Below are positions 9,362-56,721 of a stretch of 64,000 nucleotides of DNA, piece by piece. The DNA lies in contig CALKVL010000017.1 of NCBI GenBank assembly GCA_937997415.1, positions 44,504 through 108,503 of the forward strand, in the 5' to 3' direction. The translations under genes and the position numbers were made by a program. The first letter of the stretch is position 1; each line of letters begins with the position of its first letter. This DNA comes from an uncultured Phycisphaerales bacterium. GTDB taxonomy: Bacteria; Planctomycetota; Phycisphaerae; Phycisphaerales; UBA1924. A model generated the notes under the pieces. That model worked only from the letters and a program-made list of their open reading frames with translations, was not told where the DNA came from and made no database searches.

Positions 9362-9390
9362 ACCACTCTCATCCGAGACATCAGACACAC

Positions 9391-9526: not shown

Positions 9527-9714
9527 CCCGGTGCCCGCACGTCCGCCTCACACGGACGCATCGGGCTGGTGGCCGGAACGGATTCCGGCGGCCATAAGCC
9601 CCGGGCCGCGTCGGAACGGGCATGACATCCAGGCCGACGGCGCTCTGGCCCATCTCCCGGGCCGGACGGAGCGCACGGGCAATCGTTTCCCACCATCCTC
9701 ACGGAGGGTCTTTC

Positions 9715-25600: not shown

Positions 25601-28600
25601 GAAGCGGAAGAGTGAACGCTGGACTGGGCCGCCCAGCGTCAAGGACAGGGAGTCCCTCGCCACGCTGACATCGCCGCGGGAAGCCCCGGTGATGGTGATG
25701 GCTCCGCTCTGGAGCAGCGAGATGCTCGCCTCGCCGCGGATGGTGGAGTTCGCGGCCCCGAAATCACCGTTGATGGCGAGCGTGCCGACGGAACGGGCGG
25801 AGAAGAAGCCGCCGCTGAGGCCGGCGATCGTGGCGGTCGTGATGTCCCCGCCGATGGCGATCGTGCCCGAGCCATCGATCTTCCCCGAAACGATTGAAGT
25901 GACGTTTCCGTCGATGGTGATGTCGCTGTCGCCGGTGACGGAGCCAACCAGGGTCAACACTCCGAGGGCCGCATCATCGGCACCGAAGATATCGAAGTTA
26001 TTGAGGATCCCGTTGGACGACGAGACGGTGAGGTTGCTTGTCGCCGTGGTGTTTCGGAGTTGAAGCGTGAGCGAGCCGGGGCTGAAGATCGCCGTGCCGG
26101 TGGTGAGCGTGATGGAGTAGGTCACGCCGCCGACCGTGAAGGTGCGAGCCCCTGTGAAGGACACCGCATCCGGAGGGGGCGTTGAGGAACCAAAGTCCAC
26201 ATCCGGGTTGGTGTTGGGGAGGTCTGTTCCGCCCCGGATGAGCCTGGCGTCGTTGGCGACCGCGGGCGAGAGGGTGTCGCCGAAGGCGCTGGTGTTCGTG
26301 ACCGTGCCGCCCAGCGTGAGCGCTGTAATGGTCGAGAAGCCGAAAGCGGAGCGATCGTCGGCGGTGTTGTAGATGCCGTCGGCACCCGGGTCGATTCCAG
26401 CGGAGAAGGAGGAGTCCCGCGTTCCGCCCGTGATGCTGATGGTGCCGATGCTGCCCGACCCGATGGTGTCGGCGTTGGAACCGGTGCCGCCGATGCGGTT
26501 GTCTGCTCCGAGGCCGCGTACTCCTGAGACAAAGGCCGTGTTCGACACCCGGCCTGTGACCGCGATGGAGGTGATGGAGTCTCCCGCGGCGAAGAAACTG
26601 CCGATGCCGGTGGTGAGATCGTCGTTGCTGACGGAACCGTTGACCGTGATGGCGGTGATCGCACGCTGGGCGTACACGGACGCCTCGAAGACTGAACCGT
26701 TGACCACCTCGAATCGGGCGAGGTTCCTGCCGGCGGTGATGCGCGGACCCTGAATCCCCGCACCCTGGGCAACGCCCGGCGGGAGCTGGTTCCGGTTGGC
26801 ATCGACGGCGACAGCGGCGGAGCGGGCGGGGTTGATGCCCACATCACCGAAGACGCTGCCCGGTGCGCTCGCCACGCGAAGCAGCGTGACGTCGAAATCG
26901 GCGTGGATATCGCCGTACAGATTGCCGTTGGTGATGACCACGCTGGCGAGCGACCCGTCGTACGACGCGATCATGTTGCCCGGGAGGAACGAGCCGTTGT
27001 TGATCGCGACGGAGGCGATGCCGCCGCTGTAACTGACGACGCTGCCGTTGAAATCGCCGTTGGAGATGACGGAGTTGATCCGACCGAAGGCGATCACCGA
27101 TCCGCGGCCGAGGAGGTTGGCATCGGGCTTGGCGCTGACGCCGCCGATGGTGACGACACCGGTGATGTTCCCGCCGACGCGGAGGTCGTTGAAGAGTTGA
27201 CCGGCCGGCGCTCCGGCGCTGGCGAGATCGCCTCGCACGAGGATGACTCCGGCCTCGCCCGCGCGACCGATGTTGCGTCCCGCGTTGAGGGCGGTGATGC
27301 CGCCGGAGAGATCGGTGCGGATGGCCAGATCCCGCGATGCGGAGAGGGTGCCGACGTTGCCCCGGCTGCCGGTGGTGGTGATGCTGCCGGACAGATCGCC
27401 CGCCGTCGCCGAGACCGTGGTGATCGGCCCGCTGGCGGCGATATCACCGCTGATGCCGCGGGCGGAGACGGTGATGATTGCGCCGTCGGGTCCGGTGACC
27501 TCGATGCGGCTGTTGATGATCTCGTTGGTGGCGGTGAAACTGGTGATGACGCCGGAGACCAGGAATGTCGAGGCCGTGATATTGCGGCCCGCGCGGGTGG
27601 TCGTCAGTTGGCCGGTGGTGATCGCGCTGGCTCGGATGTCGTTGGTGGCCGAGAGCAGGATCAGTTCGTTCACGACGCCGATGGTGCTGCGTGTGATGTT
27701 GGTGGCGGTGATGCCTGTGCGGACACGCCCTGTAACGTTGATGAGCAGGTCGCTCATGTCGCCGTTGGTGGCGGCGATGCGGCCCACATCGAGGGCGCAG
27801 ATGATCTCGCTGGGGCGGAGTTCATCGAGGCTGCCCGTGAGCGTGGAGTTGCGGAAGCCCGCGGCGAGGATGTCGCCCACCCGGCCCGTGGTTCGGAGGC
27901 GCGACGCGTCCCAGAAGCCGCCGGTGAGCGTGAAGTTACCGAAGTTGTTGGTCGAGATCTCGCTGTTGTAGAAGGTGGAGTTGTTGAGCGTGATGCCCGC
28001 GATGTCGCCGAGTTGGACGTTGTCGTCACCATAGAAGAAACTGGGCCAGAAACCGTCGAGGGTCTGGGTGCCGAAGTACGCGCCACGGACCTGGGCATTG
28101 GTGAAACTGATGGAGTTGATGCCGTCGGCGACGGTGAGGAGCGGCTCCGGGACCGAGTTGCTGGCGCTGATGGCGCCTTCGATCAGGATCGGGCCGGGGC
28201 GTGAACTGTTCACGCTGAGGAGGTTGTTGATGGCGAAGATGCCTCCCGAGGCGATGGGGTTGGGCCCGCGCGAAGCGATACCGTCACCCACATCGACGCC
28301 GGTGATATTAAAAGCGAAGATCGAACCGATGACGCCGTCGAAACCGCCTTGCGGGGTGATGCGGTCGCCGTTGGCTGTTGCCTGGGCGAGTTCCGCGGTC
28401 GCGCCTTGCAGGATGACGTCGCCAAGCGATCCTTCGGCACGAACGACCGCCACGTTGCCCGCTCGGATCACGACGCCGTTGAGATACGGCGAGAAGGGGG
28501 CGCCGATATCGTCGAGCGAAGCCTGGCCGCCCTGGAAGTTGTCGTCGTTGACCGCACGGATCAACTTCGAGGGGAGAAAATCATCGTCGAGCAGCGCGCC

Positions 28601-31600
28601 ACCGGGGATGCCGAGCGTCCCGCCGACCTCGCCGACGAGGCCGATGCTGTAGCCCATGAACGGCCCGATGAGGGTGGGGCCGTAGTCGGGCAGTTGGGAG
28701 CGACCGAGATTTCCACGCACGCTCAGGCGACCCAGGCCCGCGACATCCACGGCGATGATGTCGCCGTTGGGCGAGTTGTTCTCGATGAAGGCCAGGCCGC
28801 CGCCTTGCGTGTCCGCGCCGCCGAACTGGCCGCGGGTGACGCGCTCCTCGATGCGCCACACGTCGATCTCGGAAGAGCCGCCGATGGCGATGCTTGACGC
28901 CCCGTCGCCGGTCACCAGGATGTGGCCGATACCGATGGCGGCGGTGGGGGAGGTCGTGACGCTGGTGATGCTCAGCGTGCGGCCGCCGACGAGGTTGGCG
29001 ATAATCTGACCGATCACCACGCCCTGCGACCCGTTCACCGGGAGGGCACGGACAAGGCCGACCTGCTGGTTGGGCGGAGCGTTGGCGACACTGATCTGCA
29101 CACGGGCGCCTCCGTCATCGATCAGATTCAGCGTCTGGCCGCCGATGAGCGGGTACGTGATGTCCGCGGAGCCTGTCAACGAGAGCAGCGGCAGGTCGGC
29201 GAAACGGATGTCCGAACCCGAGCCGGTGTTCAGACGGATGCCCTGTGCCCCGAGGTAGACACCGGATCGCGGGTTGGCATCGTCGTAGGCGTCCTGGCTG
29301 ACCAGGATGGCGCCGATGCGTGAGTTGGGGCTGGTGGTGACAGTGAACGAATCGCCCGCGACGTGGAACCCGACTCGGATCATGCCGATGTCGCCCGGCC
29401 CGCCGCCGAGACCCGTGAACACGTTGAACGAGTTGACGCTCAGCAGAGCGCGGGGGTCTGGTTCGTCCTGGTCCATTCCAACGCCGCCGCGGATATCGAG
29501 AAGACCGATACGGCCGTTGACGTTCAGGTCGAGGAAGTTGACATCGCCCTCGCTGGGTCGGTCGCCGCCGGGGACGGCGGACATTCCTGTATACAGCGAA
29601 CCGAGATCTCCGCCGATGGTGACGTTGATCCGCGGGTTGCCCGTGACGGCGTTTGGTCCGATGTCGGAGCCGGTGATGATGTTGAAGAGGCTTCCGGCGA
29701 CGCTCACGCTGCCGCCCTGCCAACTCATCGCGTCGTCGTCGCTGAGAACGGTGTTCGAGAGTTCAACCGGGGACGTTTCCGCTCCGCCGCCGTTCATGAA
29801 GCCGGTGCCGATGCGCAGCGAGCCGACATTGCCCGAGAGGACCGAGATGCTGCTGCCTTCGCCGCTGGCCTGGTCGGTGAAGCCGTTGCCGCCCGCGGTG
29901 CGGAAGGCTCCCAGCGTCGCGGGGGCCATGCCGGTGATGGTTACCGAGTACGGGAGAACTCCCGAACCGGTATCGTTGCTGTTGGGGTCGGTGATAACCA
30001 GGTAATAGACGCCGGGTGCATCGGCCTTCCAGGTGAGGTTGGTCGCGACGAACCGACCCTCGCGGAACTGGCTCGGGGGCGCTGCGAGCGTTCGGCCGTC
30101 CTGGTCCATGATGCGGAAGTAGGGAGAGAGTGTGGCACTGCTGATCGTGGCCTGGATGTTGATCGTCGCGCCTTTGTCGGCGGCGAAGGCGAAGACGTCC
30201 GCGGCGTCTTCGCCCAGGAAAGGATCTCGCCCGGAGATGTCGCCCACGATGCGTGCGGCCGTGCCCGCGTTGCCGATGAACTCGGCGGCGAGGATGGAGT
30301 CGTTGCGGAGGAAACTGGAGCCCAGAACGATGGATTGCTGCCCTGCCCGCAGGAGCGAAGTGGACGCCGTGTAGTTGTCCGGCGTGTTGAGCATGAGTTG
30401 GCGGACAGCCTCGGCGCGGGTGGTGCCCGGGTCCACGCCGATATACGCCTCGAGTTCGTTGTAGGTGTAAATGTCTCGGGAGGGACGGTTTTGCGGATCG
30501 AAGGTATCGCCGACGATGGTCACATCGAGTTGGCTGCGGGCGCCGATAAGGATCTGCCCGGCGGTCCTGCCGACGATCACCTGTCCGTTGGTCTTGTTGT
30601 TGGGATCGACCGTGCGGCCGTCGGAAAAGCGGAAATCGGTGTCGGGGGACCAGATGCCCGCATCGCCTCCGACCACCAATGAGCCCAGGTCGCCGTCAAC
30701 CGTGATGGAGCCCATGAGCACGCCGATGGCGATCTTGTCCACGAACCCGGAGAAGTACGATGATCCGTGGACCAGTCCGTGGATGGTGATGCTGCCCATC
30801 GAACTGCCGTCTTCCAGGAAGATGCCCTGGTTCGGACGGTTGAACCCAGTGGTGACGTAATCAATGACGTCGAACGGGTTGGGTGTCGAGAGGTCGGGCA
30901 TGAGGCCGCCCGGGTTGGCCCCTCCCTGGGTCACGTTGTTGCGGATGAAAGGTGACCCGATGATGATCGAGGCCGGCCCGGGCGGGAGGCCCGCGAAGTC
31001 GAACTGATCCTGCTGCAGGTCCACGGCGTAGGCGAACCCCACATCTTCCATCTCGTCGAGAAGGCCGATCGGATTGGCCTCGAGCGTGAAGACATATGGC
31101 GCCTGGTACTCGATGCGAGGGATGAGCGTGAAGGGATCGAAGCCGTCCGGCGCCGTGGTGCTCGTGGTGATCTTGCCGCCCCACATCTGGAAGGATGTGC
31201 GCGAGTCCGTTCCGCTGAATCGGATGGAGCCGATGCCGTCGTTGTAATCGGGGATGCCATCCGCGTTGATGTCGCCGGGGTTGAACTCGGTGCCGGGCGG
31301 CGGGATCGTCGCCAGGGTTTGGCGCATGTCGCGGCCGTAGAGGTCGCGGAAGTTGACCGTTGCACCGACGGGACCCGTCAGGACCGCGATGAAACCGTAC
31401 TGCCCCAGGTCGTTGAGGAGGGCGGCATAGTCCGAGGAAGGAAGTGTGAAGGAGACATCATCGATTCGGAAAGCCGGGTTGATCCCCGACCCGGCATTGA
31501 CGGCCTGGGTCAGTTCCAGACGGAGCGTGTCGAACCCTCCGACGTTCGCGGGAAGCGTCAGCGTGCCGGTGCCCAGGTTGGCGTTGCCGCCGGCGAAGAG

Positions 31601-32251
31601 CGCCCGCAGGGCCGCGCCGGTGAAGGACTGCGTCACGACGTTGTTGTAGAGAAGTGAAAGACGCGTCTGGTCCGTCAGGATGCCGGTGTTGTCGGTGCCG
31701 CCGTCGGCGGTGACAAGGAACGAAGCACCGATCGCCGCGAGTTGGAACTGCGGGTTGGCCCCGTCATCCCAGAAACGGAACTGCACAAACTCGGTTCGTT
31801 CATCGAGCGAGACGCGGAGATAACGCTGCTGGTTGTCCTGTACCTGGGGCTGGGCCGTGATGCGGATATCCCCGGCGGGGTTGATGTTGTGCTGAATTTG
31901 GAGCCCAGATTCGGGGGCGATACCTCCGCTGCCCACGATGCCGTAGCCCAACTGGTCGAAGCTCTCGGTCTTGGAAGTGGGATCGGTGGGGGTGATGTCG
32001 ACGTTGCTGGCGATGTACGGCAGGTAGTACCCGGCGTACCCGACGACGGTGCCCAGGCCGGTGTTCGGATCGACGTTGTCGGCGGTGACGGTCAGCGAGA
32101 AGAGCATCTGCCGGCGTTCGAGCTGCTCGATGTTCGGGCGCTCCGTTGAACCGGCGAGCATCGCCAGTCGAGACGGGCCATCTCCACCCTCTCCGCACAG
32201 GCGCTGACGCTGACGGACGTATGGGCGGTTCACCTTCTTCTTGCGATGCAT
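22697..32251 (-). CDS. Giant secreted/surface repeat protein (about 3184 aa): basic N-terminus + LExRxLLS-type motif, PPC-like domains, long beta-helix-like repeat region
   Basis: ATG at 32251 is preceded by AGGAG (5-nt spacer). N-terminus: MHRKKKVNRPYVRQRQR...IEQLERRQMLFS. The Gly/Thr/Ser/Asn/Asp-rich repeats contain almost no Cys. All overlapping plus-strand ORFs are antisense artefacts. Confidence 0.85.
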   Translation of the reverse strand: MHRKKKVNRPYVRQRQRLCGEGGDGPSRLAMLAGSTERPNIEQLERRQMLFSLTVTADNVDPNTGLGTVVGYAGYYLPYIASNVDITPTDPTSKTESFDQLGYGIVGSGGIAPESGLQIQHNINPAGDIRITAQPQVQDNQQRYLRVSLDERTEFVQFRFWDDGANPQFQLAAIGASFLVTADGGTDNTGILTDQTRLSLLYNNVVTQSFTGAALRALFAGGNANLGTGTLTLPANVGGFDTLRLELTQAVNAGSGINPAFRIDDVSFTLPSSDYAALLNDLGQYGFIAVLTGPVGATVNFRDLYGRDMRQTLATIPPPGTEFNPGDINADGIPDYNDGIGSIRFSGTDSRTSFQMWGGKITTSTTAPDGFDPFTLIPRIEYQAPYVFTLEANPIGLLDEMEDVGFAYAVDLQQDQFDFAGLPPGPASIIIGSPFIRNNVTQGGANPGGLMPDLSTPNPFDVIDYVTTGFNRPNQGIFLEDGSSMGSITIHGLVHGSSYFSGFVDKIAIGVLMGSITVDGDLGSLVVGGDAGIWSPDTDFRFSDGRTVDPNNKTNGQVIVGRTAGQILIGARSQLDVTIVGDTFDPQNRPSRDIYTYNELEAYIGVDPGTTRAEAVRQLMLNTPDNYTASTSLLRAGQQSIVLGSSFLRNDSILAAEFIGNAGTAARIVGDISGRDPFLGEDAADVFAFAADKGATINIQATISSATLSPYFRIMDQDGRTLAAPPSQFREGRFVATNLTWKADAPGVYYLVITDPNSNDTGSGVLPYSVTITGMAPATLGAFRTAGGNGFTDQASGEGSSISVLSGNVGSLRIGTGFMNGGGAETSPVELSNTVLSDDDAMSWQGGSVSVAGSLFNIITGSDIGPNAVTGNPRINVTIGGDLGSLYTGMSAVPGGDRPSEGDVNFLDLNVNGRIGLLDIRGGVGMDQDEPDPRALLSVNSFNVFTGLGGGPGDIGMIRVGFHVAGDSFTVTTSPNSRIGAILVSQDAYDDANPRSGVYLGAQGIRLNTGSGSDIRFADLPLLSLTGSADITYPLIGGQTLNLIDDGGARVQISVANAPPNQQVGLVRALPVNGSQGVVIGQIIANLVGGRTLSITSVTTSPTAAIGIGHILVTGDGASSIAIGGSSEIDVWRIEERVTRGQFGGADTQGGGLAFIENNSPNGDIIAVDVAGLGRLSVRGNLGRSQLPDYGPTLIGPFMGYSIGLVGEVGGTLGIPGGALLDDDFLPSKLIRAVNDDNFQGGQASLDDIGAPFSPYLNGVVIRAGNVAVVRAEGSLGDVILQGATAELAQATANGDRITPQGGFDGVIGSIFAFNITGVDVGDGIASRGPNPIASGGIFAINNLLSVNSSRPGPILIEGAISASNSVPEPLLTVADGINSISFTNAQVRGAYFGTQTLDGFWPSFFYGDDNVQLGDIAGITLNNSTFYNSEISTNNFGNFTLTGGFWDASRLRTTGRVGDILAAGFRNSTLTGSLDELRPSEIICALDVGRIAATNGDMSDLLINVTGRVRTGITATNITRSTIGVVNELILLSATNDIRASAITTGQLTTTRAGRNITASTFLVSGVITSFTATNEIINSRIEVTGPDGAIITVSARGISGDIAASGPITTVSATAGDLSGSITTTGSRGNVGTLSASRDLAIRTDLSGGITALNAGRNIGRAGEAGVILVRGDLASAGAPAGQLFNDLRVGGNITGVVTIGGVSAKPDANLLGRGSVIAFGRINSVISNGDFNGSVVSYSGGIASVAINNGSFLPGNMIASYDGSLASVVITNGNLYGDIHADFDVTLLRVASAPGSVFGDVGINPARSAAVAVDANRNQLPPGVAQGAGIQGPRITAGRNLARFEVVNGSVFEASVYAQRAITAITVNGSVSNDDLTTGIGSFFAAGDSITSIAVTGRVSNTAFVSGVRGLGADNRIGGTGSNADTIGSGSIGTISITGGTRDSSFSAGIDPGADGIYNTADDRSAFGFSTITALTLGGTVTNTSAFGDTLSPAVANDARLIRGGTDLPNTNPDVDFGSSTPPPDAVSFTGARTFTVGGVTYSITLTTGTAIFSPGSLTLQLRNTTATSNLTVSSSNGILNNFDIFGADDAALGVLTLVGSVTGDSDITIDGNVTSIVSGKIDGSGTIAIGGDITTATIAGLSGGFFSARSVGTLAINGDFGAANSTIRGEASISLLQSGAITITGASRGDVSVARDSLSLTLGGPVQRSLFRFGNSVGAITAPAVSQTIFSAGDSIGNVTINGDFFDSALVSGMDLGTDAFFGGTGSAADTLSSGTIGNVTVSGNFRESDITAGYARGNDGFFGTNDDNVAAGLGSIGAVTINGTGVGSTRSTENYRIASNGIIGPVRIGGSTFTGSQGNFAVEAPRLAPISAQVSDIRLSVDARVFTANLVFNQPIDFSTISPSLSVSEVRGNGNITIRLIQGVDYTLSYDATNNTVKVVFSKSVTERNLPIAPALPGPGIYRFEIDESIFKAKLVGIGIDGDGDGFSEPGDNFSGDGIVGDAGDKINPTINFVNTNGAPLRVDMYGATNLNFVMDRNATANNLPDPNIPYTVRGFIGDHPDNDNNFFRFAGDADVYAVTLQAGQILQLSGLRGTAINAGLTVFTATGGQFGQFADNAVAVSVPAAAGTATDQTFAQSYLIQATGTYYIVVGNTSGVFSPTTTPNPDTFPNTLGDYNFTITLFDDGDSGFNSATDSGDGQLVANAPDPISFAGADGVLGTSDDISTLIIGDYTFVFDRASGIVSGTNASNISTIRDASGKVTSTVNAAIGPRGSAGVPNALVTGDVDVFHLNNRQPIAAGTRMKITVKLADFGADLGSASPTDFQDNRGVVQFALFDTTGGTLIDDASLVFSPTDFLPYAGTPNKVIADNGETRYGFDAQGDFYIDFIVPERAGSPGANGTFAVMLQGAFNTDYQLEVITAGTGTITRRTQNVLIETNGGSVDWLQAGGFTTNIQSFDLRALGFTGGSVNGLPVNDYVLTNLVNQLNALFQGSVAGSGFDVRFSTNPADFEFEPFSTVYLSTTTDPLLPLFDAFGNAFNFNFLQTGFFNTQPFGFSQRSDPFNTDLEDDAVVFLPSFAVKGIVPDVAGLDTIAQALTGAVSRRVGELMGLRITADNGAATLFDPFAADSVNNQPGSDRSYTILNTSRTLSGSFDSITRSNFFLGRQNAVSLLDRVLNRR

Positions 32252-32660
32252 ATCTGCTCCTGAGCACCCAACGGACTGTCCCCCCGGACATCCTTCTTGA
32301 ATATCAACTTCACTCACGACCGCGCGGCCGTCCTATGGCAGCACCGATCGCCGTCGCCAACTGACTGAACGACGAGGGCGCAACGTCCCCTCGTCATACA
32401 CCGAACAATATGTAGCCGTACGCAGGGTCACTTCATCAGTTTCATGGTACCAGCCTCAACCGGCCCCGAATGTAGGACCGTACTCGTACAGGGACCAAAT
32501 ACGGGTTCTGCTGCCAATAAACCAGATCAAAGCCCAGTTGGTGCGTTGTTTTGGTGCCCGTCTGGTATTGCCTGTCTCTGTTCAACTCGGCAGTACTCAT
32601 ATCCTTTTCTACAGGCTGATCTGCTGATGAGATGTAAGTCTCTCTCTACTGTTCTATCTT

Positions 32661-39090: not shown

Positions 39091-42000
39091 TCAACAACTC
39101 CCATTTTCCCAGGCAAAGAAGAATACTTGTACATCGCTGCCGTCGATGCCGCCATCCTGGTTGACATCTGCATCGGCGATGCCGTTCTGCCACGCCTCGA
39201 AGAAGGACTCGACATCGGCGCCGTCGAAGCCGCCATCGTTGTTGAAGTCGCCGACACAGCCGGGGGGTGGGTCGCCGCAGTGCTCATCACAATAGTTCAC
39301 GCGCTGCGTCAATACCGTCTCGTACATGATGTCGTACATGTTCTTTGATTGCCAATCCTCGAGCAGGATGTAGTGTCTCTCCCAGTCATACTTGAAGAAC
39401 TGGAGCAGTCGCTGCAGCCAGCGCCGTGTGTGAGGCAACGGGCGTGCCCGGCGTATCTGAATGCTGTGCGGTACATCGCCGCCCGCACCGACAAACCCGG
39501 GACGGATCAGCGGTGCATTGTCGAAGGGGTACCGGGTGTTCGGCACATGAGCGAAGACCGCAGGGTCGTCCACGACCCAACTTTCTTCATCGCAGGCGGC
39601 CCCGAAGGAGGAATTGTAATCGCGATCCCCGTTCGGCCCGGCGAAGTGATCCGCCGTGCTTTGGAGGAAGGAGTAATGGTTGGGCTTGCGGTTCCGTGGG
39701 TTGTAGCCGCCGGTCAGCTTGTACTCTCGTTGAACCGGCTGAATCATGCCGGACGGTGAGAGGTAGGGTGTTGCCGAAGCGCCTACGAGGAGCGGATGGA
39801 CCACCAGCCCGATCGACGGGAACGGAGCGAACCACTTGTCTCTCACCTGGTCGATGAAGAGGCCGATCGCTTTCGTGGGTTGGCCCCGACCCGCGGGGCT
39901 GAATAGGCCGCGGTCGAAGACCTTGCCGAAGAGAACCGGCAGGTCGAGTTGGGGGCGGTAGCCCGCGGGCCTCAGAAGCGGGTGGTTGGCGCTCGAGAGC
40001 GCGCTGTCGAAACTCACGGTGTTGTCGTCAAAGCCCTGGAGCAGGAGGTACTTAATCGGCGCGAGACTGGTCGGGTGCCCGCCCGCAAGCGTGAGAGTCT
40101 TGATCGGCGTGGTGTTCTGATACGACCTCCATTTGTAGTGCATGACCACCGGCACCAGGTCCACGAGATTGCTGCGTGCCAGCGGCAGGAAGTCGAAGAG
40201 GTTGTCGCAGTCGATGCGACAGGCGTTGTTGCCGACACCGGTGATGTCGATCAGATCGAGCAGGATGTTGACCGCCGGGCAGAGCCAGGGAGGGAGCGTC
40301 GGAGGATTCGTCTGGAGGTAGCCGCCCAGCACGATCGCGGCCGTGGCCAGACGACTTCCGCCGAAGGCGCCCTGTATGGACACGTGCGCCTTGCACAACT
40401 CCGGGACATGCCCGACGTTGAGATTGGAGAACCGCGATGCGGCGGACATCGTGATGTCGGTCACCGGCGCTCCGGTGGAGTGCGACACCACGACATAACT
40501 GGGCGTGCCGAAGTTATTCTCGTACCGCCCCATCGGGTCGTAGACCCCGTGGGCCGCATCGCCATACTGCATGGCATCCGCGATCTGACGCATCATCGCC
40601 CTTGCGGCGACATCGAGACGCTGCGTCGCGGCATAACTGACGATGATGTAGCGGTTTCTGAAGCCCCGGCTGGTCATATATTCATGGATGTGATCCTCCC
40701 AGTATCGCTTCGCACCTTCGTGCCAGTAGCCGCCGGGGTAGAACTCGCTGATGTCATCAGGCCATTTGGTGTAGGCCCCCGGCGCGGTGGACTCGCTGCA
40801 GACCAGCCGTTCAAAGAGCGGGTCCAGACGTAGCCCGTGAACGAAGACAATGTCCCGCCCGCCGAAGAGATACTGCTGATCGGGGCAGGGGCAATACGCG
40901 GGGGGGTTGTGGTAGGAATAGGTGACGATGGCATCGCTGTCGGGCGTGAAGGGATCGACTTCGTTGCGTACTTCCTCGAGGATCTGCTCGTCCCACTTGC
41001 GGATGGTCTCCGCGAACTCATCGCAACTCACGCCGGTGATACCCAGTGCCGCGAGGTCCGCATCGCAGTTAGGCAGGTCCGTCTCCGGGGGCGGTGGGTC
41101 GCCGCCGATCGCAGGGTCGCAGGGGAAATCCTTCAACCACGTCACCAACTGGGTGTTGAGCGTGGGGTGGAGCGAACTGACGCGTCCCTGGATGTCGATG
41201 ATCCACGAACCTTCATCGAGCGAGCCGGGTTCGAGGTTCGGCGGGTAGGCGATCATGCCCGCGGGTCCGCGCTCGATCCCCTCCGATTCGCAGACGCATC
41301 GCCGTTCGAGCGTTTCCGTGCTGTTCATCCCGGGTTGTGAGAACAGATCGGCGTTGAGGTAGACCATCCTGTTCCGCGCGTTGTCGTAGCACATGCCGCT
41401 CTGGCCGTGCGCGGTGGGGGTGTCCTCCGCACGCACCCATTCAGCGCCGTCCCACTCCCATGTATCGCTCAGGAACTGCGTCCCGTTGTACCCGCCGTGC
41501 AGCACGACACGGTTGCACTTTGAGTCAAAGGCCATGGCCGAGATGGTGCGGGCGGGCGGGCCGCTGGTGCGGACCAGCGACCAGACCACACCGTCCCACT
41601 CCCATGTATCTCCCAATACCGACGAGCCTCCGGCCGTCTGGCCGCCGAAGAGAACCACCCGGCGACGGTGGGCGTCATACGCCATCGCGGGTGAATATCG
41701 GGGTGTCGGTGCCGGGCCGCCGAGTCCGACCTGGACCCAGCCGGCACCGTTCCATTCCCATGTGTCGGTCAACGGCCCCGTGCCTGTCCAACCGCCGAAG
41801 AGGACCGTCACGCCGCGGGCCGAGTCAAAGGCCATCGCGTGGCGGGAGCGGGCCGCCGGGCCGGGAGCGACCATCTGTGTCCACGTTGCGGTCAGCGCAT
41901 CAAACTCCCACGTATCGCCGCGGATGCCGGCCACGCCGACACCGCCTTCACCACCGAAGAGCACGGCTCGATCTCGGAACGTGTCGGTCGCGATGCCTGC

Positions 42001-44184
42001 CAGCGCACGCGCGGAAGGACGGATCGCCGCGGGAAGCTGCACCCATGCCGACCCATCCCACTCCCACGTGTCGTTCAGGTACGAGGTGCCGCCGACCCAG
42101 CCGCCGAACGCCAGGCTAGTGGCGCGAGCCTCAACGAAGGTCATGGCCGGCGCGATGCGAGGTGGTGGAACATCGCGATTGACCACGGACCAGATCTGCT
42201 TCTTGCAGGCGTAGATTTTCTCGAAGGGTGTGACATCCTCGTAGGTGTTGCCGATGCGAATCTCATCGATCTCGCCGGAGTACGCCGCGGCCCCGCGGCC
42301 CAACTGGACCTGCGCCCTGGTCACACTGTGGATATCCACGAAGTTGAGCGCCGTCACCGCCGCGGTATGGTCCTCCGGCTCGATGGAGAGTGACGGGTTG
42401 ATCCATAAGCGGAAATCATCGGGGCCGGTCTTGAAGTCGATCCGCATGACCAGCAGCGCCTTGGTCGTCGCCGGTACGGTGGACTGGCGATGGCCGCCGC
42501 CGATGCCGCCGTCGATGCCCCACGTCGATTCCGCGTAGGGCTGCCCGAAGAAGATGAACCGACCGGCGGGGCCGACGGGTAGTTGGACACCCAGGTATGT
42601 CAACCCGACCGAACCGCCCGTTTGCTGCGCGATGAAACTCAACCAGAGTGTGCCGGGCCGATCACCCAACGGTGCACCGCCCCCGAGGTCCAAGGGGCGC
42701 TCGATGATCGACATGGTGGACGCCTCACCCCTTCCGATCGTGTGATTCATCGGGTCGCCGCCGTTGAAGTGGGGCAGGCTGCCCGCGGCGACATTCCATT
42801 GACCTGTGTTCGAGGTCCAGGGGCCTGCCCAGCCGGTGCCGCCGGCCTGACCGGCCATGATGCTCCCGGGCTGGTAGCCGAAGCCTTCGTAGACGGTATC
42901 TGGAAGCAGTCGTGCGGCGGGCAACTGTGAGCCTGGGCCAGTCCATCGCGCCATCCGATTGGCGGAGCCTCCGTTGACGTTGACAAACCGTCCACAGGCG
43001 TACAGCCCCGTGGAGGTTGGGCCACCCGCGGTCATCCGCATGAGCGCATAGACGCGGTCATCGCATCCGGCACCCAAGGGCGCCCAGACGCCGGGCGACC
43101 ATTTGGCGATTCTGGCGGCGGCTACACCACCCGCGTTCAGGAAGTCTCCACCCGCGTACAGCTGGGGCTGGTTGTTGTCGTTGAAAGATCCCAGCGCGTA
43201 GACGGCGTTATCCACGCCGTTGCTTCCCCCGCCTCCAGGCAGGTTCGACCAGAGTGTGCCATTCCAACGCGCGATACGGCTGGCGTTGCCGCCGCCCGCG
43301 ACGGTAAAAGCACCGCCCGCGTACAACTTCAAGCCCGAGCCGTCGTCGAAGGTTGTCAGCGCCCAGCAGTTTCCGTTTAGGCCAGCGCCAAGAGCATTCC
43401 ACGCCGAGCCGTTCCACTTGGCGATGCGGGCGGAGGCCACGCCGCCCGCCAAGGTGAAGATTCCGCCCGCGTAGAGCGCGTTGCCGGTGCCGTCGTCGTA
43501 GTCCACGAGCGCGTAGGTGCCAAGGTTGGTTCCGGTGCCGAGAGGAGACCAGGCCGAACCGTTCCAACGAGCGATGCTCGAGCACGCGATGCCGCCCGCG
43601 GTTGAGAAGTTGCCTCCTGCATACAGCGCCGGGGTGCCGTCGACACGCGAGACGTACAGCACCGGAACGAAGCCGTTGATGCCTTGCCCGGACGGTCCGA
43701 CATCGACCCAGGCCGAGCCGTTCCACTTGGCGATGCGGTTGATCGCCATCGGAGTTCCACCCTGGGTAATGCTGGTGAACGCGCCCGCCGCGAAGAGCCT
43801 TGGCGGGCTGGGACCGGCGCCGTCTTCATCAAAAACGGCCAGCGCGTTGATCGTGTTATTGAAGAGCACACCAGATCCGATGGACGACCACACCGAACCG
43901 TCCCACACCGCGATCCGTGATGCGGAGACGCCTCCTGCGTTGGTGAAGTTTCCGGCCACGACGAGCCGGGGCGGGTTGGGGCCGGGACCATCGGTATCCC
44001 AGGTGGTCATGGCGTAGGCCTCGCTGTTGAGGCCCGGCACACCTGTAGAAATATCCCATTGTGCCGGTGCAAAGGAAGCGCTCACACACAGCACGGCCAG
44101 CCCTGCCCAGCCACTCGTGAGTCGCGCGGCACGCTGGGGGGTTTGAACCTGAAGTTCCATACCGCCTCCTGACATTTTCTTCAT
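39091..44184 (-). CDS. 1697-aa secreted multidomain protein: beta-propeller repeats, LamG-like region, Kelch repeats, alpha/beta-hydrolase (lipase-like) domain, C-terminal Cys-terminated dockerin-like module
   Basis: Signal peptide: AGLAVLCVSASFAPAQW. About 8 repeats of the IA(K/R)WNGSxW...YAGGxF type. Kelch-like DTWEWDG repeats. IVFVHGL plus VVVSHSTGA (oxyanion and nucleophile-elbow motifs). The protein ends ...DVNQDGGIDGSDVQVFFFAWENGSC. AGGAGG lies 4 nt before an internal ATG at 44160, which may be the true start. Confidence 0.85.
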   Translation of the reverse strand: MKKMSGGGMELQVQTPQRAARLTSGWAGLAVLCVSASFAPAQWDISTGVPGLNSEAYAMTTWDTDGPGPNPPRLVVAGNFTNAGGVSASRIAVWDGSVWSSIGSGVLFNNTINALAVFDEDGAGPSPPRLFAAGAFTSITQGGTPMAINRIAKWNGSAWVDVGPSGQGINGFVPVLYVSRVDGTPALYAGGNFSTAGGIACSSIARWNGSAWSPLGTGTNLGTYALVDYDDGTGNALYAGGIFTLAGGVASARIAKWNGSAWNALGAGLNGNCWALTTFDDGSGLKLYAGGAFTVAGGGNASRIARWNGTLWSNLPGGGGSNGVDNAVYALGSFNDNNQPQLYAGGDFLNAGGVAAARIAKWSPGVWAPLGAGCDDRVYALMRMTAGGPTSTGLYACGRFVNVNGGSANRMARWTGPGSQLPAARLLPDTVYEGFGYQPGSIMAGQAGGTGWAGPWTSNTGQWNVAAGSLPHFNGGDPMNHTIGRGEASTMSIIERPLDLGGGAPLGDRPGTLWLSFIAQQTGGSVGLTYLGVQLPVGPAGRFIFFGQPYAESTWGIDGGIGGGHRQSTVPATTKALLVMRIDFKTGPDDFRLWINPSLSIEPEDHTAAVTALNFVDIHSVTRAQVQLGRGAAAYSGEIDEIRIGNTYEDVTPFEKIYACKKQIWSVVNRDVPPPRIAPAMTFVEARATSLAFGGWVGGTSYLNDTWEWDGSAWVQLPAAIRPSARALAGIATDTFRDRAVLFGGEGGVGVAGIRGDTWEFDALTATWTQMVAPGPAARSRHAMAFDSARGVTVLFGGWTGTGPLTDTWEWNGAGWVQVGLGGPAPTPRYSPAMAYDAHRRRVVLFGGQTAGGSSVLGDTWEWDGVVWSLVRTSGPPARTISAMAFDSKCNRVVLHGGYNGTQFLSDTWEWDGAEWVRAEDTPTAHGQSGMCYDNARNRMVYLNADLFSQPGMNSTETLERRCVCESEGIERGPAGMIAYPPNLEPGSLDEGSWIIDIQGRVSSLHPTLNTQLVTWLKDFPCDPAIGGDPPPPETDLPNCDADLAALGITGVSCDEFAETIRKWDEQILEEVRNEVDPFTPDSDAIVTYSYHNPPAYCPCPDQQYLFGGRDIVFVHGLRLDPLFERLVCSESTAPGAYTKWPDDISEFYPGGYWHEGAKRYWEDHIHEYMTSRGFRNRYIIVSYAATQRLDVAARAMMRQIADAMQYGDAAHGVYDPMGRYENNFGTPSYVVVSHSTGAPVTDITMSAASRFSNLNVGHVPELCKAHVSIQGAFGGSRLATAAIVLGGYLQTNPPTLPPWLCPAVNILLDLIDITGVGNNACRIDCDNLFDFLPLARSNLVDLVPVVMHYKWRSYQNTTPIKTLTLAGGHPTSLAPIKYLLLQGFDDNTVSFDSALSSANHPLLRPAGYRPQLDLPVLFGKVFDRGLFSPAGRGQPTKAIGLFIDQVRDKWFAPFPSIGLVVHPLLVGASATPYLSPSGMIQPVQREYKLTGGYNPRNRKPNHYSFLQSTADHFAGPNGDRDYNSSFGAACDEESWVVDDPAVFAHVPNTRYPFDNAPLIRPGFVGAGGDVPHSIQIRRARPLPHTRRWLQRLLQFFKYDWERHYILLEDWQSKNMYDIMYETVLTQRVNYCDEHCGDPPPGCVGDFNNDGGFDGADVESFFEAWQNGIADADVNQDGGIDGSDVQVFFFAWENGSC

Positions 44185-52345: not shown

Positions 52346-54526
52346 TCAGCAGCCGCCGCTCTCCCACGCGGCGTAAAAGGCTTCCACATCGGAACCGTCG
52401 ATGCCGCCATCTCGGTTCACGTCGGCTGCATCAACACCGTTCTGCCAATCCGCGAAGAAGGCCTCGACATCACCGCCGTCGATGCCGCCGTCCTGGTTGT
52501 AGTCGGCGGGGCAGGGCGGCGCCTGGAACTCATAAGCGCCGACATCCACGATCGGGGCTGTGCCCGCGCCGAAGTCCGCGGTCGCGGGATCATCGATCAG
52601 GCGGGGCATCCCGGCGAGGTCCCAAGGAGTGATCTCGTTCATGTTGCCGTCGGCATCGGCATCGGTGAAGTCCGTCGGCAACAAACTGTTCGTGCCGCGG
52701 TCGATACAGGGTGAGTTCGTGCTGAGGCGCAAGTCATCGTCGAGGTCGCCGGGGATGTTGTTCGGCCCGTCGTAATCCACGAAGCCCGGCGCGGTCAGGA
52801 AGTTGCCGACGCCGGGGTAGGGCACTCGGTCATCGTCCTGAATATTGCAATACGTAGCGGACATGGTTGAGTCGGGCTGTGCGTGGAGATTCTCGAACTC
52901 TTTGCCCAGCCAGGCGTTGCCCGACGTGTTGTAGTAGATGATGCAGTTGCGGGCCGAGACGGTGGAGGCCCACTCGGCGTACAAACCACCGGATTGAACG
53001 AAGGCCGAGTTGCCGACCACCGTGCAGTTGTAGAGGTGCGCATACCCCGGATCTCCGTCGCCGTTCCCCGGCTTGCGTGCCGCGACTGCGCCGCCCTCGC
53101 CCGCGTAACCGCCGCTGAAGACGCTGTTGGCGATCCAGGCGGTGCCCCCTTCGATGCAGACTCCCGACCCAGAACCGTTCACCGTGGCCTGGTTGCCTAT
53201 GAACCTGCATCGGTTGATCCGCAGGACCGGCGCGAACCAGCCGCTCTGGCCGCGGAAGTCGATCGCACCGCCGTGCTTGTCCGATGTGTTGTTCAAGAAC
53301 AGACAGGCTTCGAAGGTCGGCCCGCTCGAGCCTTCGCAGAAGACCGCGCCGCCGACTCCGTCCGCGTTGTTGCCGACAAACCGCACGTTACGGAAGGTGG
53401 GAGAAGCATTGGTGATCCACGCTCCTCCGCCCTTGTTGTCGTTGCCTGCGGCGTTGTGGTTGCCCCCGGTGATGGTGACGCCGTCGAGCACGGCTGTGCT
53501 GTTGACGTTGGTGATGCGCAGGACGTGGTACGAGTTGTCGCTGGTGAGTTGGCTCGCGATATCCCCGCTGAGGTAGACGGCGTTTGATTCCGGATCTCGC
53601 TGCGAGGCGAGGGATTCGATGCCGGCGAATCCCCCGAGGATCCTGCACCCTTGCACGAGTTCGAACGAGGCGTTGCGGTTGATGTTGTTCGGGGAGCCTG
53701 TCGGGTAATAGGTTCCTTCGGCGACCCAGATTTCACTGATCGCACCCTGCGATGCCTTGGCGAAATCGATGGCGTCGGTCAGGCGGGTGAAAGCGTTGGT
53801 CCACGACAAGCCCGTGTTCGCGCCCGATGCATCCTTGTCCACGTACAGGCGACTCTGGTTGATCTTGACCAGTTGGATGCCATTGATCGCGGCCCGCTCC
53901 TGATCGGTCCATCCGCAGTTGGCCTTGATCTGGACAACGGGCGAACCGCTCCCTATCACGAGCGTGCCGACCACGTAGTTGGTGCCGCGGATCCATGAGT
54001 TGGCGGGAACGGGCTGGCCGCCGCAGTTGGCGGAGAACTGCGTGACTCCCCCAACGGTGGCGGTGATGGAACTGCTGTAATAGTTCGTGAAACCCCACGA
54101 ATCGATCCACGAACCCGCGGAGCCGGGCAGCGCGGAGTAGACATAGACACGGTACAGACCTTGTGAAAGCCCGTTGAGGGAAACACCGCAGGAAGCACCG
54201 AGACCTGAGACGCTCATGTAGTCGAAGATCAGTCTGCTGTAGTCCGTGGTCGCTCCCGATACGGAACTCGAAGACGAGGAGCCGTTGAGTTTCGTGCAGG
54301 AGACTCCCGAGGAGGTGCCGTTCAGAGCCAGGAGGGAAACGGGGCCGCCGGAGTTGGCAAGAAAGGAGTTCCAATGTCCGACCTGGCCGCCCGCCGCGGT
54401 GTACGCGATGGATGGGGTCCCGGACCCGGTGCCGCTCGACTGGTCAATGTCGATATTCAACGACTGTGCGAGCGCGGGGCAGGCCGTCACGATACAGGCG
54501 AGAATGAGAGCGTGGGCGGGTTGCAT
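52346..54526 (-). CDS. Secreted right-handed beta-helix (pectate-lyase-fold / Pmp-repeat-like) protein with C-terminal Cys-terminated dockerin-like module
   Basis: Start re-picked at MQPAHALILACIVTACPALAQS (signal peptide). Repeats of the GGA(I/V)...N(S/C)xFxxN type. The protein ends ...CPADYNQDGGIDGGDVEAFFADWQNGVDAADVNRDGGIDGSDVEAFYAAWESGGC. Confidence 0.85.
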   Translation of the reverse strand: MQPAHALILACIVTACPALAQSLNIDIDQSSGTGSGTPSIAYTAAGGQVGHWNSFLANSGGPVSLLALNGTSSGVSCTKLNGSSSSSSVSGATTDYSRLIFDYMSVSGLGASCGVSLNGLSQGLYRVYVYSALPGSAGSWIDSWGFTNYYSSSITATVGGVTQFSANCGGQPVPANSWIRGTNYVVGTLVIGSGSPVVQIKANCGWTDQERAAINGIQLVKINQSRLYVDKDASGANTGLSWTNAFTRLTDAIDFAKASQGAISEIWVAEGTYYPTGSPNNINRNASFELVQGCRILGGFAGIESLASQRDPESNAVYLSGDIASQLTSDNSYHVLRITNVNSTAVLDGVTITGGNHNAAGNDNKGGGAWITNASPTFRNVRFVGNNADGVGGAVFCEGSSGPTFEACLFLNNTSDKHGGAIDFRGQSGWFAPVLRINRCRFIGNQATVNGSGSGVCIEGGTAWIANSVFSGGYAGEGGAVAARKPGNGDGDPGYAHLYNCTVVGNSAFVQSGGLYAEWASTVSARNCIIYYNTSGNAWLGKEFENLHAQPDSTMSATYCNIQDDDRVPYPGVGNFLTAPGFVDYDGPNNIPGDLDDDLRLSTNSPCIDRGTNSLLPTDFTDADADGNMNEITPWDLAGMPRLIDDPATADFGAGTAPIVDVGAYEFQAPPCPADYNQDGGIDGGDVEAFFADWQNGVDAADVNRDGGIDGSDVEAFYAAWESGGC

Positions 54527-54759
54527 GTGGTCGATCCTTTCAGGTGGTGTGCGTGTACCCGATACATCCCACCATGGCACCGTTCGGCACTATGCCGATA
54601 CGCGGGTGGGTGATTCAGATCGGGTCGAGGCGGGTGTCAAACCTGACCTCGTACGGACTCATGCGCGAATGGTGCAGCGATCGGCTAGGAGATTCTCCGA
54701 CAGGCTACCCTCCGCCGAGTCCGTACCACACGACACCCGATCACCAACCCGGAGAACAC

Positions 54760-55245
54760 ATGGCGAAGAAAAAATCAAAGAAGGCAGCATCCAAAGCCGC
54801 GAAGAAGCCCGCGAAGAAAAACGCAGCGAAGAGTGCGAAGAAGAGAGCAGCAACCGCCAAGGGTCCGCGAGCGATGAGCACCGGCAGGGGGGCAACACCG
54901 CTTGAGATCGGATCAAGACTTGTCGCGGATTTCAACGCGGGCAAGTGGGAACTGACCGATGCCTGGAGCAAGGACCTGGTCAGCATCGAAGGACTGGGCG
55001 TGGCCATGGCCTGGGAGGGGCGCAGGGCCGTGGATGAGAAGAACGCGTGGTGGGCGAGCACGCATAAGGTCTACGGCGGGCGGGCCGAGGGACCCTTCGT
55101 CGGCGCGACGGGCTTCGCGGTCAAGTTCACGATCGACGTCGAGGACACGACCACCGGCAAGCGTGAAACCATGGTCGAGGTCGGCGTGTACACCGTGAAC
55201 AATGGCAAGATCATCCGGGAAGAGTTCATGTACTTCGCCGGTTGA
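54760..55245 (+). CDS. NTF2/SnoaL-like fold protein with Lys/Ala-rich (histone H1-like) N-terminal tail
   Basis: GGAG lies 6 nt upstream of ATG 54760. MAKKKSKKAASKAAKKPAKKNAAKSAKKRAATAK is followed by ...MVEVGVYTVNNGKIIREEFMYF, which is typical of the SnoaL-like C-terminus. Confidence 0.6.
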   Translation: MAKKKSKKAASKAAKKPAKKNAAKSAKKRAATAKGPRAMSTGRGATPLEIGSRLVADFNAGKWELTDAWSKDLVSIEGLGVAMAWEGRRAVDEKNAWWASTHKVYGGRAEGPFVGATGFAVKFTIDVEDTTTGKRETMVEVGVYTVNNGKIIREEFMYFAG

Positions 55246-55414: not shown

Positions 55415-55514
55415 TGCACCGGCGACTTCAACCGCGACGGCGGCGTTGACGTCGCTGATGTCGAGTATTTCTTTGAACGCCGGCAATCGGGATGCCGATT
55501 CGGTATCGGCGTGA
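55415..55514 (+). pseudogene. Decayed fragment of a dockerin-like module (one Ca-loop repeat, frameshifted)
   Basis: It translates as CTGDFNRDGGVDVADVEYFFE. The homologous continuation (NAGNRDADSVSA-stop) appears only in the +1 frame. There is no credible upstream coding region. It lies in the intergenic gap before the convergent GT28 gene. Confidence 0.25.
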
Positions 55515-55536: not shown

Positions 55537-56721
55537 TCACAACATCGCCGCGATGGGAGCGGATGGCGTTCTGGACTCGCCGGACTCAGATAGCCTGCTG
55601 ATAACCATCGCGGCATCGAGCGCGGCGCAGGGTTTGCCGATCAACCCGGCATACCGAGACATCGCTGTGAGACGATCCGGCTCTTCGAGCAGCTCCGCCG
55701 CGACCTTGCCGGCCTGTTTCGGCTCCGGTTCCATCAACGCGGCCCCGGCACGGACCAGCATATCCGCGTTGCGTTCCTCTTGTCCGGGAATGGGCTTCAG
55801 CAGCACCATCGGCAGGCTCATCGCCGCGGCCTCCGCGGTCGAGAGTCCGCCCGGCTTGCCCACCATTAAGTCCGCGGCGGCCATGTACTCGTGCATCAGG
55901 CGCGTCTCGCCCAACACGTGGAATCTCGACCCAGCCGTGTGGTTGCGCAGCGTTTCGCTTAGACGCCTGCGTAGTCGCTCGTTGCGGCCGCAGACAACGA
56001 TCGCCGTGGCCCGGCTCTGTGCATCGATCAGACCCTCGACAACCCGGTCAAGCCCCCCCAGACCAAGACCGCCTCCGCTCAGCAGCAACACCGGACCATG
56101 TCTGGGGAGACGGTGGCGTTCTCGTGCCATGAGTTTGGCGATTGGACGAGAAAAGACCGGATCGATCGGGATGCCGGTCACGGCGATGCGGTGCGTGTCC
56201 ACGCCCCTTTGTTGGAGCGTGGCCGCTGCGGTCCGCGTTCCTACCAGATACATGTCAACACCCTCTACCTGCCAGATCGCGTGCGGGTGCTGATCGGTCA
56301 CGACCACGCACAGTCGTGCCGAGAGAACTCCTTTCAATCGAGCGGCGCTCAACACGCGAGCACACGCGAAATGGGTGCAGACGAGAGTGCCCGCTTCACG
56401 CACCGTTTTCAACCGGGTGAACGGGGTCAACGCGTGCTGCTCGATCATCGCGGCCATCCAACCGCCCGCACGACCCTGCGGGGCGTTGTCCATTCGATCG
56501 TACAACCAGCCCGCCACGCGTGGCAGACGGCTCATGGTCGCGAGATAACCGTCCCGATAGCCGTGGACAAACCAGGCGGGAGCGTGCTCCAGCGCCTCGA
56601 TCGTTTCAACCGCGCCGTACCGCGCCAACTCCGAGAACGCCGCGCTCAGGGCGTGGGCCGCACGGGTGTGGCCGGAACCGATTTCGGCGGTGCAGAGCAC
56701 CACCCCGGACTGGTGATTCAT
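55537..56721 (-). CDS. MGDG synthase / UgtP-like glycosyltransferase (GT28 family)
   Basis: VVLCTAEIGSGHTRAAHAL N-terminal motif, LLLSGGGLGLG, and a C-terminal GT-B region (GKPGGLSTAEAAAMSLPMV). Confidence 0.85.
   Translation of the reverse strand: MNHQSGVVLCTAEIGSGHTRAAHALSAAFSELARYGAVETIEALEHAPAWFVHGYRDGYLATMSRLPRVAGWLYDRMDNAPQGRAGGWMAAMIEQHALTPFTRLKTVREAGTLVCTHFACARVLSAARLKGVLSARLCVVVTDQHPHAIWQVEGVDMYLVGTRTAAATLQQRGVDTHRIAVTGIPIDPVFSRPIAKLMARERHRLPRHGPVLLLSGGGLGLGGLDRVVEGLIDAQSRATAIVVCGRNERLRRRLSETLRNHTAGSRFHVLGETRLMHEYMAAADLMVGKPGGLSTAEAAAMSLPMVLLKPIPGQEERNADMLVRAGAALMEPEPKQAGKVAAELLEEPDRLTAMSRYAGLIGKPCAALDAAMVISRLSESGESRTPSAPIAAML

Follow-up and report, generated by a model that had tools for sequence, protein, structure and literature searches.

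Why do two secreted proteins that are otherwise unrelated end in nearly the same 55 residues? The question is raised by a 64,000-nucleotide stretch of contig CALKVL010000017.1 from an uncultured Phycisphaerales bacterium, referred to below as the window. Two of its genes encode a large multidomain protein (gene 1, protein 1) and a right-handed beta-helix protein (gene 2, protein 2), each of which terminates in a module of 55 amino acids (aa) that begins and ends with Cys. A first-pass annotation of the letters had called this module dockerin-like and proposed that it is a portable tag for anchoring exoproteins at the cell surface. We found that the module belongs to the GC-type dockerins, a family already curated at NCBI. 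Its C-terminal recurrence, its portability and the anchors that homologous passengers carry elsewhere support the proposed interpretation; the anchoring itself we infer.

Identity and predicted structure of the shared module

Both carrier genes lie on the minus strand, and the C-termini quoted in the first-pass annotation were recovered from minus-strand open reading frames (ORFs). Reading 39094-39261 and 52349-52516 on the plus strand yielded nonsense translations and was rejected. All three quoted peptide strings were found in the sequence with their coordinates right, the full modules being on the minus strand. The gene 2 ORF (52346-54580) encodes 744 aa if read from a GTG and 726 aa if read from the Met at 54526 (MQPAH...). 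The modules aligned without gaps and, as had been claimed, shared the majority of positions: 36 of 55 residues (65%) were identical (BLASTP E 5e-26). When the passengers (1642 vs 671 residues) were compared, no similarity was found, the best E value being 4.0. At the DNA level the modules were 71.5% identical, with 31 of 55 third codon positions kept, which indicates that their likeness reflects conservation at the protein level; recent gene conversion between the two was rejected on the same count of third positions. A six-frame motif scan of the window revealed, apart from the two full modules, nothing but a single plus-strand loop at 55415. Module 1 ends in ENGSC and module 2 in ESGGC immediately before the stop codon, the small residue-Cys ending being that of NF041540, the NCBIfam model described below.

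The best NCBIfam match of both modules was NF041540, 'dockerin_GC / GC-type dockerin domain-anchored protein', and the name that the first-pass annotation had suggested was thus right. The curated cut-off of this model is 29 bits. Module 2 passed it, scoring 36.4 bits in isolation and 30.0 bits within the 744-aa ORF; P0063, a 98%-identical relative of protein 2, scored 33.2 bits. Module 1 fell just under the cut-off, at 28.8 bits in isolation and 21.2 bits in the full protein, and automatic annotation would therefore miss protein 1. This shortfall is a threshold miss: protein 1 is clearly homologous and a member of the same family, because its module scored 83 bits against a family profile built in this analysis and shares 65% of its residues with module 2. 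The match of the window modules spans positions 1-66 of 67 in NF041540, a model that was also matched by 79 of the 79 full-length family representatives. The EF-hand models (PF13499, PF13202 and others) gave matches weaker than that of dockerin_GC (best scores: EF-hand_5, 19.1 bits; EF-hand_7, 17.0 bits) and below their gathering scores of 25-30. The module thus hits a dedicated dockerin model and not generic EF-hand models only. A match of module 2 residues 38-51 (DGSDVEAFYAAWES) to NF041643, 'EAxFAS motif-containing spurious protein' (19.7 bits, cut-off 27), is probably a short-motif coincidence.

The GC-type dockerin is already known as an NCBI-curated family, and protein 2 would be named automatically. 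NF041540 is a naming rule, with which the modules described here agree in their C-terminal place and their Gly/Ser-Cys end. The present analysis adds the family size and the strict C-terminal habit, the predicted dockerin fold, two Cys pairs, single-repeat forms, tandem arrays, a comparison of what fills the C-terminal anchor slot, and the sub-threshold assignment of protein 1. In the literature searched, the term 'GC-type dockerin' was not mentioned and no binding partner for it was described, in agreement with the first-pass statement that none had been.

For structure prediction, we used an alignment (A1) of the two window modules and 20 metagenomic relatives. The AlphaFold2 (AF2) model of module 2 had a pLDDT of 94.4 and comprised two loops with a helix after each, the helices spanning residues 13-24 and 40-52. 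In a Foldseek comparison with the Protein Data Bank (PDB), the best 15 matches were all dockerins in cohesin complexes (2VN5_B, 4FL4, 2CCL_B, 5LXV_B and others), and dockerins made up most of the matches in a profile-based sequence search of the PDB. The loop pattern is D-x-N-x-D-G-G-x-D-G-x-D, each loop being followed by a helix of the form V-E-x-F-F-x-x-W-E; both 12-residue Ca loops of module 1 are intact. Across 278 canonical modules, the invariant or near-invariant residues were C1, A3, D4, N6, D8, G9, G10, D12, G13, D15, F19 and W23, followed in the second half by D31, N33, D35, G36, G37, D39, G40, D42, F46, W50, G53 and C55. Specifically, loop positions 1, 3, 5, 9 and 12, the predicted Ca ligands, were invariant as D/N/D/D/D. 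The two repeats within a module were on average 69% identical in this set, suggesting the internal symmetry typical of dual-binding dockerins. The linker between them has 4 residues (positions 27-30), leaving no middle helix. Based on this model, the GC module is predicted to be a compact duplicated F-hand dockerin with two Ca2+ loops.

The module resembles cellulosomal type I dockerins (PF00404; PDB 2VN5_B, 1OHZ_B, 4FL4) in its duplicated F-hand fold, the spacing of its Ca ligands, its internal two-fold symmetry and its C-terminal place on secreted enzymes. In contrast to type I, the GC type is shorter (55 aa), has the 4-residue linker without a middle helix, and is marked by Gly-Gly in each loop, F-F-x-x-W-E helices and Cys at both ends. 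Moreover, its carriers are not cellulases.

The bracketing cysteines are highly conserved: among 308 non-redundant modules, Cys1 was kept in 96% and the terminal Cys in 97%, and the two were lost together in two related ORFs, L058 and L073. An 'intramolecular clasp' is known from solved dockerins, in which one of the three residues preceding the first Ca loop (-3 to -1) contacts a C-terminal residue; when the clasp is mutated, the fold becomes less stable and cohesin is bound more weakly (Slutzki et al. 2013, PMC3821032). Cys55 and Cys1, the latter at -3 from the first Ca ligand, occupy these clasp positions. As they are also co-conserved, we infer a Cys1-Cys55 disulfide clasp. The known clasps are non-covalent, formed by aromatic-Pro stacking or a salt bridge, whereas the GC type would use a disulfide, a word with 0 occurrences in the clasp paper (PMC3821032). 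A third Cys, in the inter-repeat linker, was present in 26% of modules and covaried with a fourth at -3 from Cys1 (66/80 vs 20/228; Fisher p 5e-35, a value inflated by related sequences since phylogenetic relatedness is ignored). This covariation points to an optional second disulfide, from Cys(-3) to the linker Cys, in about a quarter of the members.

The two ORFs without the bracket (L058, minus strand, 3135-5792; L073, minus strand, 8317-10662) carry a variant module in which the order of the repeats is seemingly swapped, the DVN-type loop coming first and the DFN-type second. A separate dockerin subtype, with L-F-V-V-L-G-S-W-G helices, was found in P0306, a homologue of the lipase-like domain of protein 1. 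Since its tail, too, starts with Cys and has GGC at its end, the Cys bracket also occurs outside the NF041540 sequence family.

The third copy, which the first-pass annotation had described as decayed, proved to be one repeat and not a whole module. No stop codon follows it, CGA standing at the ancestral stop site. It sits in intergenic DNA between two convergent genes, 54544-55245 (plus strand) and 55537-56721 (minus strand), and the long plus-strand ORF that runs over it is antisense to a glycosyltransferase gene. The closest relative of the window is the Phycisphaerae metagenome-assembled genome (MAG) GCA_016793105.1, which contains MBL9002118.1, deposited as 'hypothetical protein' and 98% identical to protein 2. 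The syntenic locus of this MAG, L081, was reached via P0063; when public assemblies were queried with the exact sequence of protein 2, none matched. At the orthologous site in L081, the terminal Cys codon is directly followed by TGA, but the loop is degraded and a second TGA has taken the place of the first Cys codon. With CGA vs TGA after the last Cys and the first Cys lost in L081, the two copies are differently decayed relics of a gene end. The gene at 54544-55245, which adjoins the relic, is SnoaL-like; its longest ORF has a Lys/Ala-rich, histone-H1-like N-terminal extension (MAKKKSKKAASKAAKKPAKKNAAKSAKKR...), and its orthologue in L081 was called as just 123 aa.

Intact single-repeat forms were found in L059, a locus of a Phycisphaerales MAG, where Cys-to-Cys tails of the form ACPADFNADGG[VI]DGLDLFAFFERWENGC-stop end two adjacent paralogous genes. 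Half a GC dockerin may be a functional minimal tag. The single-repeat (group 2) dockerins of Ruminococcus flavefaciens have one Ca loop and still bind cohesin (PMC12270676). They share the single Ca loop with the L059 tails and the 55415 relic but belong to another lineage and sequence family, and the GC half forms keep the Cys-to-Cys bracket.

Family size, passengers and the anchor slot

Searched exhaustively with a profile, 1.84 billion cluster representatives yielded 10,722 protein clusters at E<=1e-3, the weak end of which surely includes other dockerins, and 1,835 (50%-identity clusters) at E<=1e-10. The ending W-x(2-4)-C-x(0-2) was present in 141 of the 150 best proteins. A word-index search using the module only gave just 22 short fragments, the family becoming visible through the exhaustive profile search.

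A genome scan covering one genome per species yielded at least 300 confirmed relatives, of which the best 80 loci were analyzed; copies per genome and taxonomic range are accordingly lower bounds. These loci came from about nine MAGs, with three to about twenty loci in each, and were labelled Phycisphaerae, Phycisphaerales, Phycisphaeraceae or Planctomycetota with one exception. L040 (JBAXBV010000070.1), a 6.4-kb contig with a typical GC-dockerin gene in a 'Betaproteobacteria' MAG, is most likely a binning error and not a real occurrence beyond Planctomycetota. The 80 loci and the window together contained 163 ORFs with the module, exactly one module per ORF as judged with a 55-column profile. 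Two to seven module ORFs within 12 kb, often in head-to-tail arrays, were found in 47 of the 81 sources, an approximate count as some loci overlap on the same contig.

Recurrence at C-termini was massive, with many copies per Phycisphaerae genome. The module ended at the stop codon in 238 of the 308 non-redundant modules and one residue short of it in 51, placing 94% (289/308) within one residue of the stop. Modules were 60-78% identical across genera though their passengers were unrelated. We propose that domain shuffling and tandem gene duplication have distributed the tail within Phycisphaerae. In four proteins, P0024, P0025, P0028 and P0031, the GC-type dockerin is followed by one to six Cys-rich dockerin-like repeats (D-F-N-L-D-G-x-V-N-C-x-D...), and the C-terminus reads GPxCxPCP in place of GC. 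Such proteins may act as adaptors with several dockerins.

The passengers are diverse. The 79 full-length carriers matched 59 different Pfam families, among them Ig, PKD, beta-helix, M36 and S8 peptidases, and FG-GAP. Protein 1 consists of N-terminal beta-propeller-like repeats, a Kelch propeller, a lipase-fold domain of about 680 aa and the GC-type dockerin. For the lipase-fold domain, the top Foldseek PDB matches of the predicted model were family-I bacterial lipases (prob 1.00, E 2e-6); no PDB or Pfam match was found at the sequence level, and the lipase likeness comes from the fold search alone. Protein 2 matched Pfam DUF1565 weakly (20.5 bits), and its homologues are named right-handed parallel beta-helix or choice-of-anchor Q proteins. 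The first-pass description of the pair as propeller/Kelch/lipase versus beta-helix thus stands, with Kelch identified by Pfam, lipase at the fold level only, and a weak DUF1565/beta-helix match.

Carriers were enriched in signal-peptide-like N-termini, which were present in 111 of 141 carrier ORFs vs 110 of 379 other ORFs in the loci (odds ratio 9, p 1e-24, by a crude test). The N-terminus of protein 2 was negative in this heuristic, solely because its n-region has no Lys or Arg.

The name 'choice-of-anchor' refers to proteins of the cell surface that occur with one or another anchor at the C-terminus (bioRxiv 10.1101/2023.03.06.531300). Homologues of the protein 2 passenger in Bacteroidota end in the C-terminal domain (CTD) of the type IX secretion system (T9SS; PF18962), others end in different dockerin-like tails or a Y-L-P-L-V-x-R motif, and the GC module ends only the Phycisphaerae homologues. 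Homologues of the lipase-like domain variously lack a tail or carry other dockerin types or T9SS-like tails. In addition, carriers matched NCBIfam models for myxosortase-, rhombosortase- and T9SS-dependent M36 peptidases, as well as the choice-of-anchor C/Q, HAF repeat and PEP-CTERM-associated repeat models. That homologous passengers bear other anchors elsewhere agrees with the idea of a portable tag and supports a role of the GC module as a surface-localization device, for which this comparison is the best available support. The T9SS CTD PF18962, PEP-CTERM, MYXO-CTERM and GlyGly-CTERM occupy the same architectural slot on homologous passengers, but the GC module has no transmembrane helix, basic tail or beta-sandwich CTD. 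No associated sortase or translocon was seen near GC modules in the window and the relatives' loci. Many beta-helix homologues of protein 2 from other phyla (for example P0189, P0202, P0208, P0222, P0229, P0239, P0247 and P0269) end in (I/V)-Y-L-P-L-V-(L/V)-R-(N), which looks like another C-terminal sorting signal.

A proposed display mechanism and its rivals

In the reading that we favor, at a probability of about 0.55, the GC tail mediates surface display. The precursor would be exported by the Sec system via its N-terminal signal peptide. In the oxidizing periplasm or outside the cell, the tail would bind two Ca2+ and fold as a dockerin, as the predicted fold and the conserved Ca ligands suggest. 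A disulfide between Cys1 and the terminal Cys would staple the ends of the module, acting as a covalent version of the intramolecular clasp, and roughly a quarter of the members would add the second disulfide from Cys(-3) to the linker Cys. The near two-fold-symmetric tail would then dock non-covalently on one conserved envelope receptor, cohesin-like or equivalent; the 60-78% identity of modules from different genera, set against unrelated passengers, suggests a single conserved interface. In this way, the cell surface would hold dozens of unrelated exoproteins per genome, including hydrolases, proteases, beta-helix and Ig/PKD adhesin-like proteins.

Several results weigh against this reading. 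Pfam PF00404 (Dockerin_1), whose gathering score is 22.9 bits, was not reached by modules 1 and 2 in isolation (16.4 and 19.9 bits) or by the full proteins (12.7 and 13.8 bits), and it was matched at E<=1e-3 in only 13 of the 79 carriers. The Foldseek matches to dockerins had TM scores of 0.53-0.64 and weak E values (0.25-5), the latter because the module is very small. At the positions that we take to be the cohesin contacts of type I dockerins (loop 10-11, helix 17-18 and 22), GC modules have Gly, small or variable residues, and their binding mode may therefore differ from that of type I. The inflated p value of the Cys covariation belongs here, as does the one extra residue after the terminal Cys in 51 of 308 modules (17%). 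No cohesin or other receptor was found among 29 window ORFs compared with Pfam (23) and/or NCBIfam (10; 4 in both). Similarly, when the 617 ORFs of the window and the 80 relatives' loci were clustered, no partner-like recurrent non-dockerin neighbor emerged: the recurrent neighbors were abundant paralog families only, namely Ser/Thr kinases, RCC1-like proteins and one cytoplasmic family without a name.

The tail might instead be a folded C-terminal export or sorting signal like the T9SS CTD, read by an outer-membrane translocon or a processing enzyme, in which case it might be removed or modified and not serve as a permanent docking module. It does fill the slot of the T9SS CTD and of sortase-type signals in homologous passengers, and its strict C-terminal place and uniform sequence over hundreds of substrates fit one recognizing machine. 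Nevertheless, we regard an export signal as unlikely: the fold is that of a dockerin, whose sole documented role is protein-protein docking, co-occurring machinery was not seen among the recurrent neighbors in the loci, and the hydrophobic helix or basic tail of the PEP-CTERM, LPXTG and MYXO-CTERM kind is missing. The further dockerin-like repeats that P0024, P0025, P0028 and P0031 carry past the module would also be odd for a terminal signal. A sortase-type signal (PEP-CTERM, LPXTG, MYXO-CTERM) was rejected as such, the tail having no hydrophobic stretch and stopping at a Cys after an amphipathic helix. A type I secretion (T1SS)/RTX-like signal was rejected as well, given the signal-peptide-like N-termini and the 12-residue EF/F-hand loops, which are not RTX nonapeptides (GGxGxD).

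Two further explanations would alter the role of the partner or of the cysteines, and we give both of them less credence than an export signal. Many bacteria reportedly encode dockerins without detectable cohesins (Peer et al. 2009), and this, together with the lack of a cohesin among the 29 window ORFs scanned, fits a tail that has no protein partner, serving as a Ca2+-dependent stabilizing cap or binding polysaccharide or peptidoglycan. Such a function is improbable in our view, as a mere cap would need neither 60-78% identity nor near-invariant exposed helix residues over unrelated carriers, and its confinement to the extreme C-terminus of secreted proteins would be unexpected. Most improbable of all is covalent anchoring through the terminal Cys, either by an intermolecular disulfide to a surface partner or tagged protein or by a modification, lipid or other. 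The 97% conservation of this Cys, usually the last residue, speaks for it. However, Cys1 is equally conserved and was co-lost with it in L058 and L073, which suggests an intramolecular pair, and the single-repeat forms keep both Cys. The 17% of modules that tolerate a residue after the Cys count against a chemistry requiring its carboxylate, and the context is neither lipobox-like nor CaaX-like.

A bolder form of the display reading can be offered only tentatively, as possible but rather doubtful: the GC-type dockerin would dispense with a canonical cohesin and use an as yet unrecognized envelope receptor in a Phycisphaerae-specific, disulfide-clasped display system, a 'planctosome', in which half-dockerins are minimal tags. 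If true, such a system would organize dozens of unrelated exoproteins per cell. Cohesin-dockerin systems in other Phycisphaerae speak for the display reading that we favor: the 'Planctosome' hypothesis proposed such an assembly in the Phycisphaerae Nemodlikiaceae (PMC6461901), and in Limihaloglobus sulfuriphilus a Coh2-Doc1-Coh1 protein was detected (PMC11557425). These are likewise non-cellulolytic cohesin/dockerin systems of the same class, with peptidase and adhesin-like carriers, but they involve Pfam-type dockerins and cohesins in other orders, and nothing ties them to the GC type.

The GC tail marks much of the predicted exoproteome of the Phycisphaerae, which abound in lakes, sludge and marine sediments but have seen hardly any experimental work. 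The module mostly goes unrecognized by Pfam, and its carriers are annotated as 'hypothetical' in older MAGs. With the receptor identified, one would understand how these bacteria retain hydrolases, proteases and adhesin-like proteins on the cell. The module could also serve as an engineering tag for Ca-dependent, disulfide-stapled docking, at 55 aa or, for a single repeat, 27 aa. For the annotation of the window, both gene products are predicted surface-targeted exoproteins whose domain family is known, and protein 1 lies just under the naming threshold.

Coordinates and neighboring genes

Table 1. Positions of the two carrier genes, their parts and the single-repeat forms. Coordinates are those of the window except for L059, where they are those of the locus.
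Feature	Positions	Strand	Remarks
Gene 1	39091..44184	-	1697-aa secreted multidomain protein; ends ...CVGDFNNDGGFDGADVESFFEAWQNGIADADVNQDGGIDGSDVQVFFFAWENGSC-stop
Module 1, GC-type dockerin	39094..39258	-	55 aa, Cys1...Cys55; stop at 39091-39093
Lipase-fold domain, gene 1	39259-41304	-	Residues 961-1642; AF2 pLDDT 78, pTM 0.87
Kelch propeller, gene 1	~41434-42216	-	Pfam Kelch families, E 7e-25
Predicted Sec signal peptide, gene 1	44062..44184	-	MKKMSGGGMELQVQTPQRAARLTSGWAGLAVLCVSASFAPA, then QW; sequence inspection and crude heuristic positive; putative cleavage site
Gene 2	52346..54526	-	726-aa secreted right-handed beta-helix protein; ends ...CPADYNQDGGIDGGDVEAFFADWQNGVDAADVNRDGGIDGSDVEAFYAAWESGGC-stop
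Module 2, GC-type dockerin	52349..52513	-	55 aa, Cys1...Cys55; stop at 52346-52348
Choice-of-anchor-Q stretch (weak), gene 2	~52523-52732	-	Directly before the tail; choice_anch_Q 19.7 bits, sub-cut-off
Predicted signal peptide, gene 2	54467..54526	-	MQPAHALILACIVTACPALA, then QS; inspection only
Half GC-dockerin relic	55415..55498	+	CTGDFNRDGGVDVADVEYFFERRQSGC; one Cys-bracketed repeat, 27 codons (55415-55495), then CGA
L059 half-dockerin genes	ORFs 1-552 and 556-1599	- (of locus)	Intact single-repeat tails

Among the other genes of the window, a giant ORF at 22697-32317 on the minus strand encodes 3206 aa, has a GC3 of 0.84, and is rich in Gly, Thr, Ser, Asp and Asn, with 0.1% Cys. It had no Pfam or NCBIfam match and no internal BLAST repeats, and its end is not a GC dockerin; a giant surface protein of beta-helical or adhesin-like type is the probable product. 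A 595-aa divergent neighbor is a membrane coiled-coil protein. Finally, the plus-strand region 3009-11262 is a flagellar/secretion block that comprises a secretin-N protein, a FlgL/flagellin-like protein, FliW, CsrA and tandem flagellins (7775-9361 and 9598-11262).

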